Part shown: positions 2,212-7,459 of the stretch, piece after piece
Numbering within the stretch: the stretch's first letter is position 1
Layout: each line of letters begins with the position of its first letter
Source: Enterobacteria phage vB_EcoM_IME341
Sequence record: MH051917
Direction: 5' to 3' (one strand)
Length of the DNA stretch: 64,000 nt
The notes under the pieces: model-generated
What the model was told of the DNA's origin: nothing
Database searches by the model: none
Seen by the model: only the letters and a program-made list of their open reading frames with translations
Translations under genes and position numbers: made by a program

Positions 2212-2235
2212 AGGGACCGTAAGGTCCCTTTTTTT
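2212..2235. terminator. bidirectional intrinsic terminator between convergent rnlB and gp24 paralogue
   Basis: AGGGACC-GTAA-GGTCCCT hairpin flanked by A-run and T-run. Confidence 0.7.
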
Positions 2236-3517
2236 AGTTTTTATCCAATGGAGGAAGTTTAACACCAAGATAAGAACTCAATTGACTTTGATTAGCCATT
2301 TTGTCCATATCCGCACCGTCAATAATACGAGCTTCTTTGTCGTCTTTAGCGACGGTATAAGGATTCGCAGTCAATGCATACCGAGCCAATAAAGATATGG
2401 TAGGTTGCAATGAATCTGGGTCTACAATAACCTTGAATTCACCTACTGAAGTATCACCTTCATCATCAACTTCTTCGAGCCCTTCCGTATAAGGCGCATA
2501 ATACAAAGATGCGACCGTCTGCCCTTCACCCATCTGAGCATTTACACCGACAATAACATAATCACACGGACTATTCATATCAGCATAAAGTGGTAGACCG
2601 TTCTTTAATATGCCATAAGCTAATTCGTCTTGGTCTTCTTTTTTCTCAACCCAACCGGATGCAGCTAAAATAGCGGCGCAACGAGAAGAAGCTACTGCAT
2701 AAGTACCTGCAAACGAAGTCTGGCGTTGAACAGCAGAATTCATTTCACACATATAGTAATACAAGGTACGCGCTCGGTCTTGGGCGTTATCATATTGTGG
2801 GTCTGTTAAGTTCAAGACGCCTTTCTCGGAAACTCCTTGGACTTTAAAACGAGAACTTACCGTAATTAAGGACTGTAATACGTCTTTATTAATTTCTTCG
2901 GCCATTTGAATAGCCAAAATATTGTCTATAAAGTCTGGTGCATTAAACCCGTTGGATTCTAAATCCTGGGCCAGTTCTACAGTCAAAGAAGTTTTAAGTT
3001 TACGCGATTTAACTTCAGTCTGCCACTTATCAATACGGAATCCTGCTTCAGCAATCTCAGGATGGCCTTTTTCAAATTTATTGGTAAAGGCTGCATCAGA
3101 CATCATACGAATATGGCCTGCTGCAATAGCTTCTGAAATAACTTCACCCAAATCGGTTTCAGTTGTTCCTGCAAACGGAGAAGCTTCTAATACCTTGAAA
3201 ACCACACTTTCGAATTGGAACATATCACCAACAGCATATGCTTCGTCTTTATCGGTGAATTCAGGAATGTTTTTACGTTCGAACATACCAATTTCGCCTG
3301 CAAAAGTGGCTCCGCCGAGATAAGTCATTTTATCGTCTGGGTTTAAAACACGGACACCATATAATGCTGCAACAGGTTGAGTAGTTTTTTGTTCAGCAAC
3401 AAGGGCTTTAAAAATTCTTTTATTAGTTGCCTGGGTATATGAAAGAAGATTAGGACGGGCGACCTGGTTGGCCGCCGTCAAAGTTGATTCTTGTATTAAT
3501 GCATTAATCTTTTTCAT
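2234..3517 (-). CDS. second, diverged copy of capsid vertex protein gp24
   Basis: 427 aa, same length and alignable end to end with adjacent gp24 at clearly lower identity. Confidence 0.85.
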   Translation of the reverse strand: MKKINALIQESTLTAANQVARPNLLSYTQATNKRIFKALVAEQKTTQPVAALYGVRVLNPDDKMTYLGGATFAGEIGMFERKNIPEFTDKDEAYAVGDMFQFESVVFKVLEASPFAGTTETDLGEVISEAIAAGHIRMMSDAAFTNKFEKGHPEIAEAGFRIDKWQTEVKSRKLKTSLTVELAQDLESNGFNAPDFIDNILAIQMAEEINKDVLQSLITVSSRFKVQGVSEKGVLNLTDPQYDNAQDRARTLYYYMCEMNSAVQRQTSFAGTYAVASSRCAAILAASGWVEKKEDQDELAYGILKNGLPLYADMNSPCDYVIVGVNAQMGEGQTVASLYYAPYTEGLEEVDDEGDTSVGEFKVIVDPDSLQPTISLLARYALTANPYTVAKDDKEARIIDGADMDKMANQSQLSSYLGVKLPPLDKN

Positions 3518-4798
3518 TTATGCCTCGTAAATAATTGGAGGAAGTTTAACACCAAGCAGATAAGACATATTACTCTGCCCTGCCATTAAATCCATATTAG
3601 TTGCGTCTATAACACGAGCTTCTTTATCATCTTTAGCAACGGTATACGGGTTTGCTGAAAGTGCATAACGAACCATCAGAGAAATAGCCGGTTGCAAACT
3701 ATCAGGGTCTACAATAACTTTATAGGCACCAACATGTTCTTGGTCGTCTAAATCCAGACCTTCGGTATACGGAGCATAGAAAATAGAACCAACTACTTCA
3801 TTACCGCCGTAATCTTCTTTAACGCCTACGATAACATAATCTAAAGGACTATTAACATCACAGAATACAGGCAATCCATTAATCAAATAACCGTAAGCAG
3901 TTTCTGGGAGCCAAGCTTCATCTTCTGGTTTATGTTTCAACCAACCTGAACCTGCAAGCATTGCGGCTACACGACTAGATGCGACAACAAACGTACCTGA
4001 ATAAGAAGTGGTTTTCTGAATTTCAGAATTCATCTCACAAACCATTTCATATAATTTACGTGCACTTTCTGGAGCGGAATTATAGGACAAATCAATAATA
4101 CCGTTATCAGATACACCAGTTACTTTGTAACGTTTAGATACGGTAATCAAGGATTGTAATACGTCTTTATTGATTTCATCAGCCATTACAGTGGCTAAAA
4201 GGTCTTCTAAGAACGCAGGGGCGTCGAAGCCATTAGATTCCATGTCTTGGGCTAGTTCTACAGTCAAAGCGGTTTTAAGCTTACGGGACTTAACAGGGGC
4301 GTTCCATTTATTAACCTGGAATACTGCATTGCTAATTTCAACATCACCTGCTTCGAATTTTTCTGTGTGGGCCGCATCAGGAACAAGACGACAAGTTAAT
4401 GACACCAAACCTTCTTGAAGGGCATCAGCCAATTCTGTAGCGCTAGTGGATGCGAGTGGGCTTGCTTGAAGAGCCTTATAAACCACATTCTGATACTTGA
4501 AATATTCACCCTCGGCAATCGCCTGGGCCTTATCTGTGAGTTCCGGGATAGTTTCACGGTCTTTAGAACCAACTTCACCGCCATAAACGGCACCAGTTTG
4601 GAAGCTGAATTCATTATCAGGGGTAAGATATTTGACACCATACAATGCAGCAATAGGCTGGCTAGTACGTTGTTCAGCAATAATATCACGGTAAATCAAT
4701 TTGGTTGTAGCACGGGTCAAAGCAACAAGATTAGGGCGACCCAATGAGTTGCTAGAAGTAGTTGTTGACTCGCGCAGTAATTCGTTAATCTTTGCCAT
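3518..4798 (-). CDS. 24: capsid vertex protein gp24
   Basis: 426 aa; N-terminus MAKINELLRESTTTSSNS; position next to gp23 as in T4. Confidence 0.9.
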   Translation of the reverse strand: MAKINELLRESTTTSSNSLGRPNLVALTRATTKLIYRDIIAEQRTSQPIAALYGVKYLTPDNEFSFQTGAVYGGEVGSKDRETIPELTDKAQAIAEGEYFKYQNVVYKALQASPLASTSATELADALQEGLVSLTCRLVPDAAHTEKFEAGDVEISNAVFQVNKWNAPVKSRKLKTALTVELAQDMESNGFDAPAFLEDLLATVMADEINKDVLQSLITVSKRYKVTGVSDNGIIDLSYNSAPESARKLYEMVCEMNSEIQKTTSYSGTFVVASSRVAAMLAGSGWLKHKPEDEAWLPETAYGYLINGLPVFCDVNSPLDYVIVGVKEDYGGNEVVGSIFYAPYTEGLDLDDQEHVGAYKVIVDPDSLQPAISLMVRYALSANPYTVAKDDKEARVIDATNMDLMAGQSNMSYLLGVKLPPIIYEA

Positions 4799-4826
4799 TG
4801 CGCTTTCCTTATTGAGGGTATATGTT

Positions 4827-4834
4827 TATTTATA
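4827..4834 (-). promoter_or_regulatory. late promoter TATAAATA for gp24
   Basis: TATTTATA on plus strand about 29 nt upstream of gp24 start. Confidence 0.6.
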
Positions 4835-4840
4835 AAAGTT

Positions 4841-4880
4841 GTTTACAGCAAGGTTATCACATGTTACTATAGACCTATCA
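4841..4880 (+). promoter_or_regulatory. early promoter cassette (GTTTAC-17-TACTAT-AGACCTATCA)
   Basis: consensus cassette; precedes ORF 4900. Confidence 0.65.
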
Positions 4881-4899
4881 AAACATGAGGAGATTAAAA

Positions 4900-5166
4900 A
4901 TGAACAAGTTAAACTTTATTCGTACTACTCTTTCCGCTCTTGATAAAGACATCAAAGCCCTGGTAGAAAAATATGGTTCCAATCCTAACGGTAATGCAGT
5001 GAATGCACTAGTTAAGAAATACGAAGCCATGGCTTATGCTACCGACTTCTGGTGGAACGGTGAATACTCTACCCATACCAAAGACAAATCTGGTAACTGG
5101 CTGAAAATCCAAGAAAATCGTATTGACTTCCGTGATATCATCAACCGTCGTGTCAAAGCAGCGTAA
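4900..5166 (+). CDS. hypothetical protein, first gene of insert between gp24 and gp23
   Basis: ATG 4900 after GAGGAG; 88 aa. Confidence 0.5.
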   Translation: MNKLNFIRTTLSALDKDIKALVEKYGSNPNGNAVNALVKKYEAMAYATDFWWNGEYSTHTKDKSGNWLKIQENRIDFRDIINRRVKAA

Positions 5167-5169
5167 AAT

Positions 5170-5841
5170 ATGAATTATTTAATTTACAAAATAACCAATC
5201 TCATTAATAACAAGATTTATGTTGGAGCCCATGCCACTACAGATGTTAATGATTCTTATATGGGCTCCGGGGTTAACATAGTAAAATCCATAAAGAAATA
5301 CGGCTTAGAGAATTTTAAAAAGGAAATCCTTTTCAATTTCGAAACATCTGAAGAGATGTATGCTAAGGAAGCCGAACTAGTTGACGAGGCTTTTGTTATG
5401 AGAACAGATACTTATAATGCAGCTTTAGGTGGTAAGGGTAATCCTGTTATAGTAGCTTTACAGGAACCTGGGTATCGTGAGATGTTATCCGAAAAGACCA
5501 AGGCAGGTATGACCAAGGAAGTAAGGGCCAAAATGTCTAAATCGAAAACAGGTTCTAAAGAATCCAAAGAGCACCGAGAAAACAAATCTATAGCTAATAA
5601 AAAGTTTTATGAGAATAGGGATTCTCATCTTAAAGGTAGGAAACTATCGGAAGAACATAAAGCCAAAATTAGAGAGAACTCTAATAAAGGTAAGAAATTT
5701 GTATTTGTTGATATAATGATTAAAGGATATAGATTTGACAGATACGAAACCGCCGCCGAATTTTTTAATGTTACCGGAGCTACCATTCGTAATTGGATTA
5801 AAGAAACAAGGCCTCAATTTGACGATTGCTATAAGTTATAG
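5170..5841 (+). CDS. GIY-YIG homing endonuclease, SegD-like by position
   Basis: N-terminal IYKITNLINNKIYVGAH...YMGSG GIY-YIG motif; C-terminal NUMOD-like K/S-rich repeats; sits between genes 23 and 24. Confidence 0.8.
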   Translation: MNYLIYKITNLINNKIYVGAHATTDVNDSYMGSGVNIVKSIKKYGLENFKKEILFNFETSEEMYAKEAELVDEAFVMRTDTYNAALGGKGNPVIVALQEPGYREMLSEKTKAGMTKEVRAKMSKSKTGSKESKEHRENKSIANKKFYENRDSHLKGRKLSEEHKAKIRENSNKGKKFVFVDIMIKGYRFDRYETAAEFFNVTGATIRNWIKETRPQFDDCYKL

Positions 5842-5851
5842 AAACAAGAAT

Positions 5852-5869
5852 GGGAGACCGAAGTCTCCC
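5852..5869 (-). terminator. terminator hairpin downstream of gp23
   Basis: GGGAGAC-TTCG-GTCTCCC on minus strand, 30 nt after gp23 stop, followed by U-rich tract. Confidence 0.6.
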
Positions 5870-5899
5870 AAATAATTTAAGAATTAATAACTTATGTTA

Positions 5900-7459
5900 T
5901 CAAATTCCCTTAACGTAAACGCGACGGAAGTAACCATTCAGACCGAGGCTGTTAACGATGTCAGGCATACCATTCTGAATACGTTTGGTAGGCGCCTGAG
6001 CAGCTGGGTCAGCGAACGGGTTAATACCGATACCGTAACGAGTTTTGAAGCCCATTACCGGTTGGAAGTTCTTCGGATCGGAACCACGCAGCGGAGTCAG
6101 TGCAACGTACGGAGCATAGTAGATACCTGCGTCCATTTCGTTAGAACCTTTATAACCGATGGTGAAGTAATCGGAACGAGCATACTGGTCGATGTAAACA
6201 CGATATTTACCACCAAGAACACCGGCAAATACTGCTTTGGTTGTGTCAACGTTGAAACCCTGACCCAAACCTTGAGCTGCATAACTTACAGAAGTATCAA
6301 CTGCAGCCAGTACGTTAACTACGTTACGGGAAGCGATGATGAAGTTACCAGCACCACGACCGGTCTGACGAGCGATTTCGGCTGCTTCTTTATCAATCTG
6401 GAACAGAAGGGCTTTAAAGCTCTCACCGGCCCAACGAGCACCACGGATATCAATCGGGTCCTGGAAGTCAAACACACCAGCTTTAGCGCCAACGGTGTTG
6501 GTCATACCAGATTTACCAACCTGTGCAGAGTAGTTAATCCAATCGATAACTTCACGGTTGATTTCGAGCATAATTTCGGTAGCAAGGATACCGGACAGTT
6601 CAGCATCTGCATCCATACCGTGTACTGCACGAAGGTCCTGTGCCAGTTCGATAGAGTAGCTTGCTTTCAGCTGACGGGATTTAGCTTCGATAACTTGTTT
6701 GTCGATGCGGAAGCCCATTTCGTTCCACGGGTTATCGGTAGAACCGTTGAAACCTTCCTGAAGTTCAGCGATAGAAGTAGCCATACCTTCAGCGATTTCA
6801 GCCAGTTGACCAGCTTCAACCAGAGCGGTAACAGCAGCATCCAGTTTAGCGGCATCAGTAGCGCCTGCATCAACGGTCACAGCTTCAACAGCCTGGAAGT
6901 GTGCAGCACCGGTAGCTTCGAAGAAGTGAGAATAAATTTTACCAACTTCCAGAACTTTGCTTGCAGCCAGTGCTTCGAAAGTTTCAGCAGCACCCTGACC
7001 AGAGAACATAGCGTTCGGAGCATACATCGGATGGAAAGCTTCTTTAGCGCCTGCAGCGATAGGGTCTTTACCGTATACTGCACGCAGTGCAAATACCTGA
7101 CCAGTAGGGTTATTCAGAGGCTGAACACCACAAATATCAAAAGCAATCAGATGAGGAATAGCACGACGAACCATACCCATTACTGCCGGCCCAATCTGAG
7201 TTACAGCACCAGAGGTCTGGCCAGCTGCGATATTGGTAGCATCATAACCGTGGTCACCACCGATTTCAGCTTCAGTCAGGAAAGAACCAAATGCTTCGGA
7301 GATTTTTTCGTCACGATATTCTGGAGCAGTCAGGATGTCTTGTTCCTGGTTTTCGAAAATTTTAGCGATGATAGCTTGTTTAGAAGCACCAACGATTTCA
7401 GGAAGAGCTTCGTTTTCCAGCAGAGCGGACCATTTTTGAACTAATGCATTCTTTTTCAT
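5900..7459 (-). CDS. 23: major capsid protein gp23
   Basis: 519 aa; synteny 22-23-24; gp23/gp24 paralogy visible. Confidence 0.95.
   Translation of the reverse strand: MKKNALVQKWSALLENEALPEIVGASKQAIIAKIFENQEQDILTAPEYRDEKISEAFGSFLTEAEIGGDHGYDATNIAAGQTSGAVTQIGPAVMGMVRRAIPHLIAFDICGVQPLNNPTGQVFALRAVYGKDPIAAGAKEAFHPMYAPNAMFSGQGAAETFEALAASKVLEVGKIYSHFFEATGAAHFQAVEAVTVDAGATDAAKLDAAVTALVEAGQLAEIAEGMATSIAELQEGFNGSTDNPWNEMGFRIDKQVIEAKSRQLKASYSIELAQDLRAVHGMDADAELSGILATEIMLEINREVIDWINYSAQVGKSGMTNTVGAKAGVFDFQDPIDIRGARWAGESFKALLFQIDKEAAEIARQTGRGAGNFIIASRNVVNVLAAVDTSVSYAAQGLGQGFNVDTTKAVFAGVLGGKYRVYIDQYARSDYFTIGYKGSNEMDAGIYYAPYVALTPLRGSDPKNFQPVMGFKTRYGIGINPFADPAAQAPTKRIQNGMPDIVNSLGLNGYFRRVYVKGI

Follow-up and report, generated by a model that had tools for sequence, protein, structure and literature searches.

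A likely early unit of a resident small gene and a separately acquired segD orthologue between capsid genes 24a and 23 of a T4-like coliphage

Two genes on the plus strand lie antisense to the late genes 24a and 23 in Enterobacteria phage vB_EcoM_IME341, and the locus raises the question of whether they came as one insert of two partner genes or have separate histories. The window, that is, the whole stretch of 64,000 nucleotides analysed here (record MH051917), was found to be 100% identical to Escherichia phage IME08, a T4-like coliphage, and is called IME08 below. A reading made from the letters only had placed here an early promoter, an 88-amino-acid ORF, a GIY-YIG endonuclease and a hairpin, inserted between capsid genes 24 and 23. 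All four were recovered, each with its position unchanged or moved by no more than 1–2 nt, and the location of a plus-strand module between late genes of the minus strand was supported by ORF calls and by Pfam Gp23 matches on both flanks. The main features are as follows.

3518–4798, minus strand: gene 24a, Pfam Gp23 match
4827–4834, minus strand: late promoter of gene 24a, TATAAATA, exact match
4841–4870, plus strand: predicted sigma-70/T4-early-type promoter (GTTTACA, 17 nt, TG-n-TACTAT)
4887–4892, plus strand: GAGGAG, Shine-Dalgarno sequence for the small ORF, with 7 nt between it and the ATG at 4900, conserved in relatives
4900–5166, plus strand: small early ORF (IME08 orf166; PHROG 6003), 88 amino acids from ATG to stop
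5170–5841, plus strand: segD, predicted free-standing GIY-YIG homing endonuclease, intact ORF of 223 amino acids
5851–5870, minus strand: hairpin of the intrinsic gene-23 terminator; stem of 8 bp, loop of 4 nt (UUCG on the minus strand)
5900–7459, minus strand: gene 23, Pfam Gp23 match

The late promoter of gene 24a stands back-to-back with the early promoter and was kept in every relative examined, empty slots included. An Rfam search of 4600–6100 gave no match. The presence of segD and a small early gene between the capsid genes is nothing out of the ordinary in this phage family and is already known. On the evidence presented below, we consider it likely that the locus is an early unit made of a promoter, a resident 88-amino-acid gene and a separately acquired SegD orthologue, with the terminator of gene 23 as its right edge.

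The ORF at 5170–5841 is already annotated as SegD in the GenBank record of IME08, in keeping with the proposal of a GIY-YIG/NUMOD homing endonuclease at the T4 segD position. It was 56% identical to the segD products of T4 and RB55 over residues 1–223, whereas the matches annotated as segC, segE, SegH and mobE were essentially confined to the nuclease domain, about 40% of the protein. Because the similarity is full-length and above that to the other Seg proteins, and the slot and orientation are the same, IME08 SegD is, judged by sequence and position, the positional orthologue of T4 SegD. The two proteins share the slot, the antisense orientation, the length of 223 amino acids and the motifs YxGAH, DxYMGSG, E and YN. 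The linker and the helix-turn-helix are only 38% and 50% identical between them, respectively, and the DNA target of IME08 SegD may therefore differ from that of T4 SegD. The domains of the protein were mapped on the plus strand as follows.

About 5170–5454, plus strand: GIY-YIG domain
About 5455–5694, plus strand: NUMOD3-type linker
About 5695–5838, plus strand: C-terminal helix-turn-helix

The assignment needed profile, NCBIfam and fold searches, as Pfam and phmmer gave too little. The Pfam families NUMOD3 (19.1 bits; cut-off, 20.4) and SegE_GIY-YIG (21.7 bits; cut-off, 25) fell just under their thresholds, and a single-sequence phmmer search against PDB returned only a chance-level match to a ribosomal protein (E = 0.32). 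TIGR01453 (“group I intron endonuclease”) matched residues 5–221 with 59.7 bits against a cut-off of 56.05. The AlphaFold2 model of SegD had a pLDDT of 85.8, with block means of 83–97 over residues 1–90. When this model was searched against PDB with Foldseek, the best matches were the catalytic-domain structures 1MK0 and 1LN0 of I-TevI (probability 1.00, target-normalised TM-score 0.66, 96 aligned columns), and the fourth match was its DNA-binding domain, 1I3J (probability 1.00). Thus, SegD has the same build as I-TevI of the T4 td group I intron, with a GIY-YIG nuclease, an extended linker and a C-terminal helix-turn-helix, although the sequence similarity of the two is marginal (profile E = 0.026). 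Unlike the intron-encoded enzyme, IME08 SegD is free-standing, has no evident zinc finger and has no residue aligned with Arg27.

All 20 residues that are invariant in a 37-member family alignment were present in IME08 SegD, and these include Tyr6, Tyr17, Gly19, Glu67 and Asn83. The GIY and YIG motifs align with Tyr6 and Tyr17 of I-TevI, and motif alignment equates Glu67 with I-TevI Glu75 (KEAELV/RENFWI) and Asn83 with I-TevI Asn90 (TYN/GYN). Opposite I-TevI Arg27 there is an alignment gap, and no arginine could be aligned by sequence. No such arginine could be placed in T4 SegD or in the family consensus (HxT..DxYxGSG) either, and its apparent absence would therefore be a trait of the subfamily rather than a lesion in IME08. 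In each copy examined, the ORF was unbroken and retained the full set of conserved residues. The aligned GIY-YIG motif residues are thus not mutated, and IME08 SegD would be an active nuclease.

The T4 early promoter consensus consists of a GTTTAC-type -35, a 17-nt spacer and a TG-extended TAnnAT -10. The IME08 element fits this consensus in its -35, its spacer and its extended -10; TTTACA lies at 4842–4847 (the extended -35, GTTTAC, begins at 4841), TG at 4862–4863 and TACTAT at 4865–4870 after the 17-nt spacer. Transcription would be expected to start near 4877. The DNA around the motif is A+T-rich. Taken alone, the motif was not above chance, with 3 promoter-like matches in the region against 4.5 expected from shuffles. 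Both hexamers and their spacing were nonetheless kept, amid diverged spacer sequence, in nine other phages of five genera (JS98, UP19, KAW3E185, ST0, EcoM005, 04086, the T4-type RB55, Vettismorki and SP18); the TG element was missing only in SP18, where the hexamers and spacing were kept. The promoter was not found in empty slots such as those of RB14 and T2. The motif together with its conservation amid diverged spacers bears out the promoter proposed at 4841 as a predicted, early-type one, and we infer that it is active in IME08 with early timing. Every occupied slot, including that of T4, has a conserved promoter of early type ahead of segD or the small ORF. For T4 endonuclease genes, a 2010 review lists only middle or late promoters, and it found none specific to segD (PMC2988022), in contrast to the predicted early-type promoter ahead of segD in IME08.

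The ORF of 88 amino acids behind this promoter was confirmed at 4900–5166; the GenBank start is at 4885, which gives 93 amino acids. The ORF was found in 118 phage records, and because its pN/pS was 0.10–0.17, it is evidently under purifying selection by this sequence measure. It matched nothing in Pfam or NCBIfam, and PHROG 6003 is a family without assigned function. A word-indexed search with the small protein returned 7 close relatives, and an exhaustive profile search returned only 13 matches, of which 4 are small proteins in full length, and those that fall within long proteins appear spurious. The AlphaFold2 model (pLDDT 74.5) consists of a helical hairpin, a beta hairpin and a helix, and its search against BFVD gave one match, an 88-amino-acid protein without a name at 40% identity. 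Thus, sequence, profile and fold searches gave no informative relative of known function. The ORF had not been recognised as one of T4, and the T4 slot indeed does not contain it.

The stop codon of the small ORF is followed by AAT and then by the ATG of segD, a gap of 3 nt, and no terminator was seen in the sequence between the two genes. The early-type sigma-70 promoter would thus drive the resident 88-amino-acid early gene and then segD on one early mRNA. The Shine-Dalgarno sequence of IME08 segD is weak (AGCAGCG; GCGGAG in 04086). With so weak a sequence, segD would probably be translated at low level, through translational coupling or reinitiation from the small-ORF mRNA, and we infer coupling to the small ORF. 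Several T4 endonuclease genes start at the stop of an upstream ORF without their own Shine-Dalgarno sequence, for example, mobE, which overlaps nrdB (PMC2988022), and the start of IME08 segD is placed similarly. T4 segD has a homologous promoter-like element upstream and the same terminator hairpin downstream, but its promoter and leader abut segD directly with no small ORF between, and it has its own GGAG.

The hairpin, first noted at 5852–5869 as a terminator for gp23, folds on the minus strand with -14.4 kcal/mol (z = -4.3), and none of 200 shuffles was as good. It is followed by UUCUUGUUUC on the minus strand, and the plus strand has no U-tract. The paired stem is GGGAGAC/GTCTCCC in IME08, GGGAACC/GGTTCCC in T4 and AGGGACC/GGTCCCT in RB14, and compensatory stem changes were seen among IME08, T4, RB14 and SP18. 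The annotation of KAW3E185 has a terminator at the corresponding position. The U-tract, the folding energy and the compensatory changes together establish the hairpin as the gene-23 terminator, and it marks the right edge of the slot, where the predicted early unit of the plus strand has its 3′ limit.

Scoring of the slot across 90 loci revealed four states, namely empty, small ORF only, small ORF with segD, and segD only. The slot is empty in many relatives, for example, RB14 and T2. JS98, JS10, Bp7, WG01, SP18 and ST0 have the small ORF but no segD, and T4/RB55, Vettismorki, L024, L038 and L041 (T4-type, Winklervirus and others) have segD but no small ORF. Among the 118 records with the small ORF, segD lies behind it in about 36 and is absent from about 80. 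Because each gene occurs without the other, the two are not an obligate pair. The locus is therefore far from universal and invariant; it is strongly polymorphic among relatives.

Comparison with JS98, the closest relative, which carries the promoter and the small ORF without segD, located the difference precisely.

5154–5918, strand not specified: tract differing between IME08 and JS98, with flanks 98–100% identical on each side

The tract consists of a 667-nt segD indel (5157–5823) and a rewritten patch. The patch takes in the spacer from the terminator to gene 23 and the final 7 codons of that gene, where six synonymous changes were seen. A different extent was seen in the Mosigviruses, where KAW3E185 and ST0 are 94–100% identical in genes 24 and 23 and the whole slot is replaced; the KAW3E185 slot is 92–98% identical to that of Dhakavirus 04086. 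On these identities, the promoter-ORF-segD block of the Mosigviruses is an import from a Dhakavirus-like donor, the whole block having crossed between the two genera. The proposal of a two-gene insert with a partner ORF thus holds for the Mosigviruses, where the unit moved as one, and fails in general, as the genes occur independently and the IME08/JS98 indel is segD with a short right-hand patch. IME08 SegD is itself a mosaic, EcoM005-like in residues 1–175 (98–100%) and 04086-like in the helix-turn-helix (83%).

Sporadic distribution, sharp boundaries and co-converted flanks were thus seen in IME08/JS98, in KAW3E185/ST0/04086 and across the 90 loci. These observations are consistent with segD being a separately acquired mobile gene that would have reached a JS98-like backbone when this recombined with a donor carrying segD, the incoming DNA replacing 5154–5918. 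In other lineages, it would have moved with larger or smaller pieces of flank, including the promoter and small ORF in the Mosigviruses, and SegD itself may have initiated the transfers. In T4-like phages, sporadic presence, co-converted flanks and domain shuffling are the behaviour to be expected from a free-standing homing endonuclease gene. In the intronless homing of T4 SegF and SegG, a free-standing endonuclease gene likewise occupies an intergenic slot beside conserved essential genes, and the co-conversion tracts that take in flanking markers vary in length. SegD differs from them in that its homing is putative; T4 SegD is reported to have neither initiated homing nor stimulated recombination at its own site (Sokolov 2018, as cited in PMC9523250).

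This reported non-homing means that the observed transfers may owe nothing to SegD cleavage, and segD would then be a passive passenger, its pattern arising from ordinary homologous recombination with occasional deletion at a slot prone to recombine, rather than from double-strand breaks made by SegD. The IME08-type spacer patch in segD-less WG01 and the “segD-less” codons TTC CGT CGC retained in IME08 gene 23 fit such a passenger. It is harder to reconcile with catalytic halves of segD that are near-identical (98–100% in protein) between Dhakavirus and Mosigvirus, although gene 24 of these backbones is only 60–80% identical, with the 92–98% DNA identity across the KAW3E185/04086 slot, and with an ORF that has stayed intact with all its conserved residues. 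The replacement tracts are also short and sharply bounded, always comprising the slot and the first 19–28 nt of gene 23 and never gene 24. Passive carriage is thus possible but, in our view, doubtful. Still less probable is an ancestral state in IME08, with segD deleted from JS98-type phages. The end of the small ORF in segD-less phages (AAG ATT GCA TAG TATAG) can be aligned with the end of segD (GAT TGC TAT AAG TTA TAG) and could be a 3′ remnant of it, but the distant Mosigvirus allele of ST0 also ends in ATTGCA, which is therefore probably native to the small ORF; a remnant origin of this C-terminus was considered unlikely. A simple deletion, moreover, does not account for the rewritten spacer or the six synonymous sites changed in gene 23; most Dhakaviruses have no segD and carry the JS98-type patch, and the IME08 patch is that of segD-bearing 04086 and EcoM005. 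By parsimony, the difference between IME08 and JS98 would be a gain.

A functional pairing of the small ORF with segD in one dedicated cassette, in which the small protein would regulate, inhibit or target the endonuclease, appears very unlikely. In its favour, the two genes point the same way behind one promoter with 3 nt between them, and in the Mosigviruses, segD came together with the promoter and a small ORF of Dhakavirus type, displacing a very different resident allele of the small ORF. Such co-transfer is, however, expected anyway from co-conversion of a flanking marker. The many small-ORF-bearing records without segD, and the T4-type, Winklervirus and other phages with segD only, also speak against a pair, as does a 39%-identical homologue of the small ORF in Acinetobacter phage ABPH49 with no endonuclease neighbour. 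A resident small gene joined by a separately acquired segD thus remains the reading that we prefer, and the end of gene 23 offers a place where cleavage might act.

5900–5947, minus strand: 3′ end of gene 23, with synonymous haplotypes linked to segD in relatives

The spacer at 5870–5899 was also considered as a segD-specific immunity patch and was rejected, WG01 having the same patch without segD. In gene 23, IME08 has GGA ATT TGA at the end but retains TTC CGT CGC. Between T4 and segD-less RB14, the sole change near the slot is a three-nucleotide synonymous difference in gene 23, which makes it a concrete candidate for a SegD site. It is conceivable, though we hold it to be improbable, that SegD-type enzymes home by cutting the last ~30 bp of gene 23 (around TAC TTC CGN CG), that the segD-linked TAC TTT AGA haplotype is immune to cleavage and that the small ORF is cargo carried across genera. 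If so, a possible reason why T4 SegD reportedly did not home into T2 would be at hand, because the T2 slot is empty yet already has the T4 (TTT AGA) allele.

The window was found to be identical (100%), in reverse-complement orientation, to Escherichia phage IME08 (Dhakavirus, HM071924/NC_014260). The elements picked out by the sequence-only reading, namely a promoter, an 88-aa ORF (the small ORF), an endonuclease gene and a hairpin, are all present in the 1,101-nt interval between late head genes 24a and 23, which is arranged as follows.

2234-3517, minus strand: late head gene 24b
3518-4798, minus strand: late head gene 24a
4827-4834, minus strand: gene-24a late promoter, TATAAATA
4841-4870, plus strand: predicted promoter, with GTTTACA (4841-4847), a 17-nt spacer, TG (4862-4863) and TACTAT (4865-4870)
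4887-4892, plus strand: Shine-Dalgarno (SD) sequence of the small ORF, GAGGAG
4900-5166, plus strand: small ORF, 88 aa (GenBank "hypothetical protein orf166", start 4885)
5170-5841, plus strand: segD, 223 aa (GenBank "SegD homing endonuclease, GIY-YIG family")
5851-5870: hairpin, 8 bp with a 4-nt loop
5900-7459, minus strand: late head gene 23
Minus strand, as 24b, 24a and 23: late head genes 22 and 21

Three bases (AAT) separate the small ORF from segD, and 29 nt lie between the hairpin and the gene 23 stop codon. The ATG that GenBank takes as the start of orf166 (4885, 93 aa) runs into the SD sequence GAGGAG (4887-4892), and this ATG is not shared by ST0 and SP18; the likely start is ATG 4900 (88 aa). 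The region 2234-4798 holds two tandem gene-24 paralogues (24a of 426 aa and 24b of 427 aa), as does JS98; gene 24 occurs only once in T4-type phages and Mosigviruses. A gene annotated as "tail fiber-like protein" (similar to JS10) at about 825-2012 on the minus strand, between 24b and rnlB, is absent from this position in JS98.

The gene at 5170-5841 is the segD of a phage related to T4, and as such it is already annotated in GenBank and known. Its product is 56% identical to T4 SegD over the full length, the T4 gene occupies the same slot between genes 24 and 23 in the same antisense orientation, and over residues 5-221 the protein passes NCBIfam TIGR01453 with 59.7 bits (cut-off 56.05); the Pfam SegE_GIY-YIG and NUMOD3 models fell slightly under their cut-offs. 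When a 37-member alignment was examined, 20 columns were invariant and all 20 are kept in IME08 SegD, including Tyr6 (GIY), Tyr17 and Gly19 (YIG), Glu67 and Asn83, so that no mutation was found in the GIY-YIG motif residues that align. The profile from this alignment matched the catalytic domain of I-TevI (E = 0.026) with both tyrosines aligned. The four best PDB matches of the AlphaFold2 model (pLDDT 85.8), all with probability 1.00, are to the I-TevI catalytic domain (1MK0 and 1LN0; target-normalised TM-score 0.66) and to its DNA-binding domain (1I3J). The modular architecture resembles that of I-TevI. The assignment of a GIY-YIG endonuclease to the T4 segD position was therefore upheld. No equivalent of I-TevI Arg27 could be placed in IME08 SegD, and because the same holds for T4 SegD and the family consensus, it does not point to a defect of the IME08 protein in particular. 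Residues 1-175, which form the nuclease domain and linker, match EcoM005 at 98-100%, whereas the C-terminal HTH matches 04086 (83%) better than EcoM005 (70%), and this mosaic suggests that DNA-binding modules have been swapped among segD alleles. Two of the deposited records compared seem faulty: in the vB_EcoM_005 record the annotation of gene 23 is short and its 3' end reads out of frame, and in 04086 an intact 223-aa segD ORF is unannotated and gene 23 is truncated.

Comparison with relatives showed that the slot is polymorphic, being empty, or occupied by the small ORF only, by both genes or by segD only. JS98, the nearest relative, matches IME08 at 98-100% identity from 24b and 24a through promoter and small ORF, and again over gene 23, and has no segD. 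The differences between the two in this region are confined to 5154-5918 and comprise an indel of 667 nt (5157-5823), which takes in nearly all of segD and the end of the small ORF, together with a rewritten spacer and, within the last seven gene-23 codons, six synonymous changes. The small ORF was found in 118 phage records, with segD behind it in about 36; conversely, it is missing from T4-type phages, Vettismorki and three IMG/VR contigs that carry the promoter and segD, and many Tequatroviruses, RB14 and T2 included, have an empty slot of 82-83 nt. Furthermore, Acinetobacter phage ABPH49 (Vequintavirinae) carries a small-ORF homologue of 39% identity (2501-2767 of the compared locus) in a run of small hypothetical genes, a long way from capsid and endonuclease genes alike, and its place outside the capsid genes shows that the small ORF has a transfer history of its own. 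An obligate partnership of the two genes was ruled out by the slots with the small ORF only, the slots with segD only and the ABPH49 homologue, which has no endonuclease neighbour. The proposal of a two-gene insert thus fails in general, JS98 having promoter and small ORF without segD and T4 having segD alone, but holds as a joint block in the Mosigvirus KAW3E185. In its population behaviour, IME08 segD is typical of free-standing homing endonuclease genes such as segF and segG, for which intronless homing is known (PMC2988022, PMC2993671). The 23/24 slot is an insertion hot spot. Three IMG/VR contigs (L062, L063 and L066) carry in it a different GIY-YIG endonuclease gene (41-53% identity over about 170-215 aa) that runs the other way, in the direction of gene 23, and six further contigs (L047, L055, L057, L064, L070 and L072) have slots of 1.2-1.6 kb.

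KAW3E185 and ST0, both Mosigviruses, are 94-100% identical throughout genes 24 and 23. The stretch of KAW3E185 that begins immediately after the start codon of gene 24 and ends 28 nt into gene 23, however, is 92-98% identical to Dhakavirus 04086, and a Dhakavirus-type small ORF replaces the very different resident Mosigvirus allele. The promoter, small ORF and segD thus moved as one block in this lineage, which is the outcome expected from flank co-conversion around a homing endonuclease gene. The pairs T4/RB14, KAW3E185/ST0 and IME08/JS98 have zero differences in the slot-side 176-185 nt of gene 24, and their differences on the gene-23 side end at nucleotides 28, 28 and 19, respectively.

In the slot-side (3'-end) 216 nt of gene 23, T4 and RB55 differ from RB14 at only three synonymous positions (TAC TTT AGA against TAC TTC CGC). 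Among 58 loci, TTT AGA was found in 7 of the 10 slots with segD and in 7 of the 48 without it (Fisher p = 0.0009, shared ancestry ignored), and the terminal codons GGA ATT in 8 of 10 and 6 of 48 (p = 6e-5, shared ancestry ignored). A haplotype so linked to segD could mark a target or immunity site. However, segD-bearing IME08 keeps the "segD-less" TTC CGT in its gene 23 3' end (5900-5947), segD-less WG01 carries the IME08 spacer patch, and T2, with an empty slot, carries the T4 allele. We consider it unlikely that the gene-23 3' end is the SegD homing target with a synonymous haplotype conferring immunity, and the association was read mainly as the end of gene 23 hitch-hiking with segD. Sokolov and co-workers reportedly found T4 SegD to be non-homing in 2018, and the documented segD transfers may therefore have been started either by SegD or by ordinary recombination.

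The early-type promoter proposed at 4841 on the plus strand is not significant as a motif in this A+T-rich DNA (3 matches against 4.5 expected), though it gained support from its conservation. With a spacer sequence that is almost wholly different, both hexamers, the TG and the 17-nt distance recur in place in the Dhakaviruses JS98, UP19, EcoM005 and 04086, the Mosigviruses KAW3E185 and ST0, T4-type RB55 and Vettismorki (Winklervirus). RB55 has TTTACA-17-TATTAT with TG (10/12; 2443-2471 of locus L003) upstream of segD at the homologous position, Vettismorki has TTTACA-17-TATAAT upstream of its endonuclease gene, and SP18 (Gaprivervirus) has the hexamers and spacing without TG. No such promoter was found in the empty slots of RB14 and T2, which contain only a late promoter and a terminator. 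According to a 2010 review, a segD-specific promoter could not be found in T4, and none of the T4 endonuclease genes is preceded by an early promoter (PMC2988022). The conserved predicted sigma-70/T4-early-type element, which also lies upstream of T4-type segD, is at odds with this statement.

The sequence ahead of the IME08 segD ATG is AGCAGCGTAAAATATG, whereas better SD sequences lie at SD distance in 04086 (GCGGAG) and UP19 (GAGG). Because of this difference, the gap of just 3 nt and the lack of a terminator between the two genes in IME08, SegD would be translated at a low level from early mRNA, coupled to the small ORF. Such coupling resembles the arrangement of several T4 endonuclease genes, which abut or overlap an upstream ORF (PMC2988022). 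The T4 leader is similar to that of the small ORF as far as the SD sequence and then runs on as the segD SD, and this likeness suggests that the T4 arrangement was derived through loss of the small ORF. The downstream hairpin (-14.4 kcal/mol, z = -4.3; none of 200 shuffles equally stable) has a U-rich tail on the minus strand only, and its stem varies between phages by compensatory pairs, which together confirm it as the gene-23 terminator on the opposite strand; for the plus-strand unit it is a weak stop at best.

The small ORF is under purifying selection (pN/pS 0.10-0.17) and belongs to PHROG 6003, a group without annotation. Its family is tiny: among 1.84 billion representatives, searched exhaustively, there were 13 matches, of which just four are full-length small proteins. 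The model (pLDDT 74.5) has a helical hairpin, a beta hairpin and a C-terminal helix, and in PDB and BFVD it has no specific structural relative except an unnamed 88-aa viral protein of 40% identity, the sole significant BFVD match. As a weak guess, it belongs with the numerous small early proteins through which T4-like phages act on the host. It appears to be the slot's resident gene in Dhaka-, Gapriver- and Mosigviruses, downstream of which segD would have inserted, so using the small-ORF promoter.
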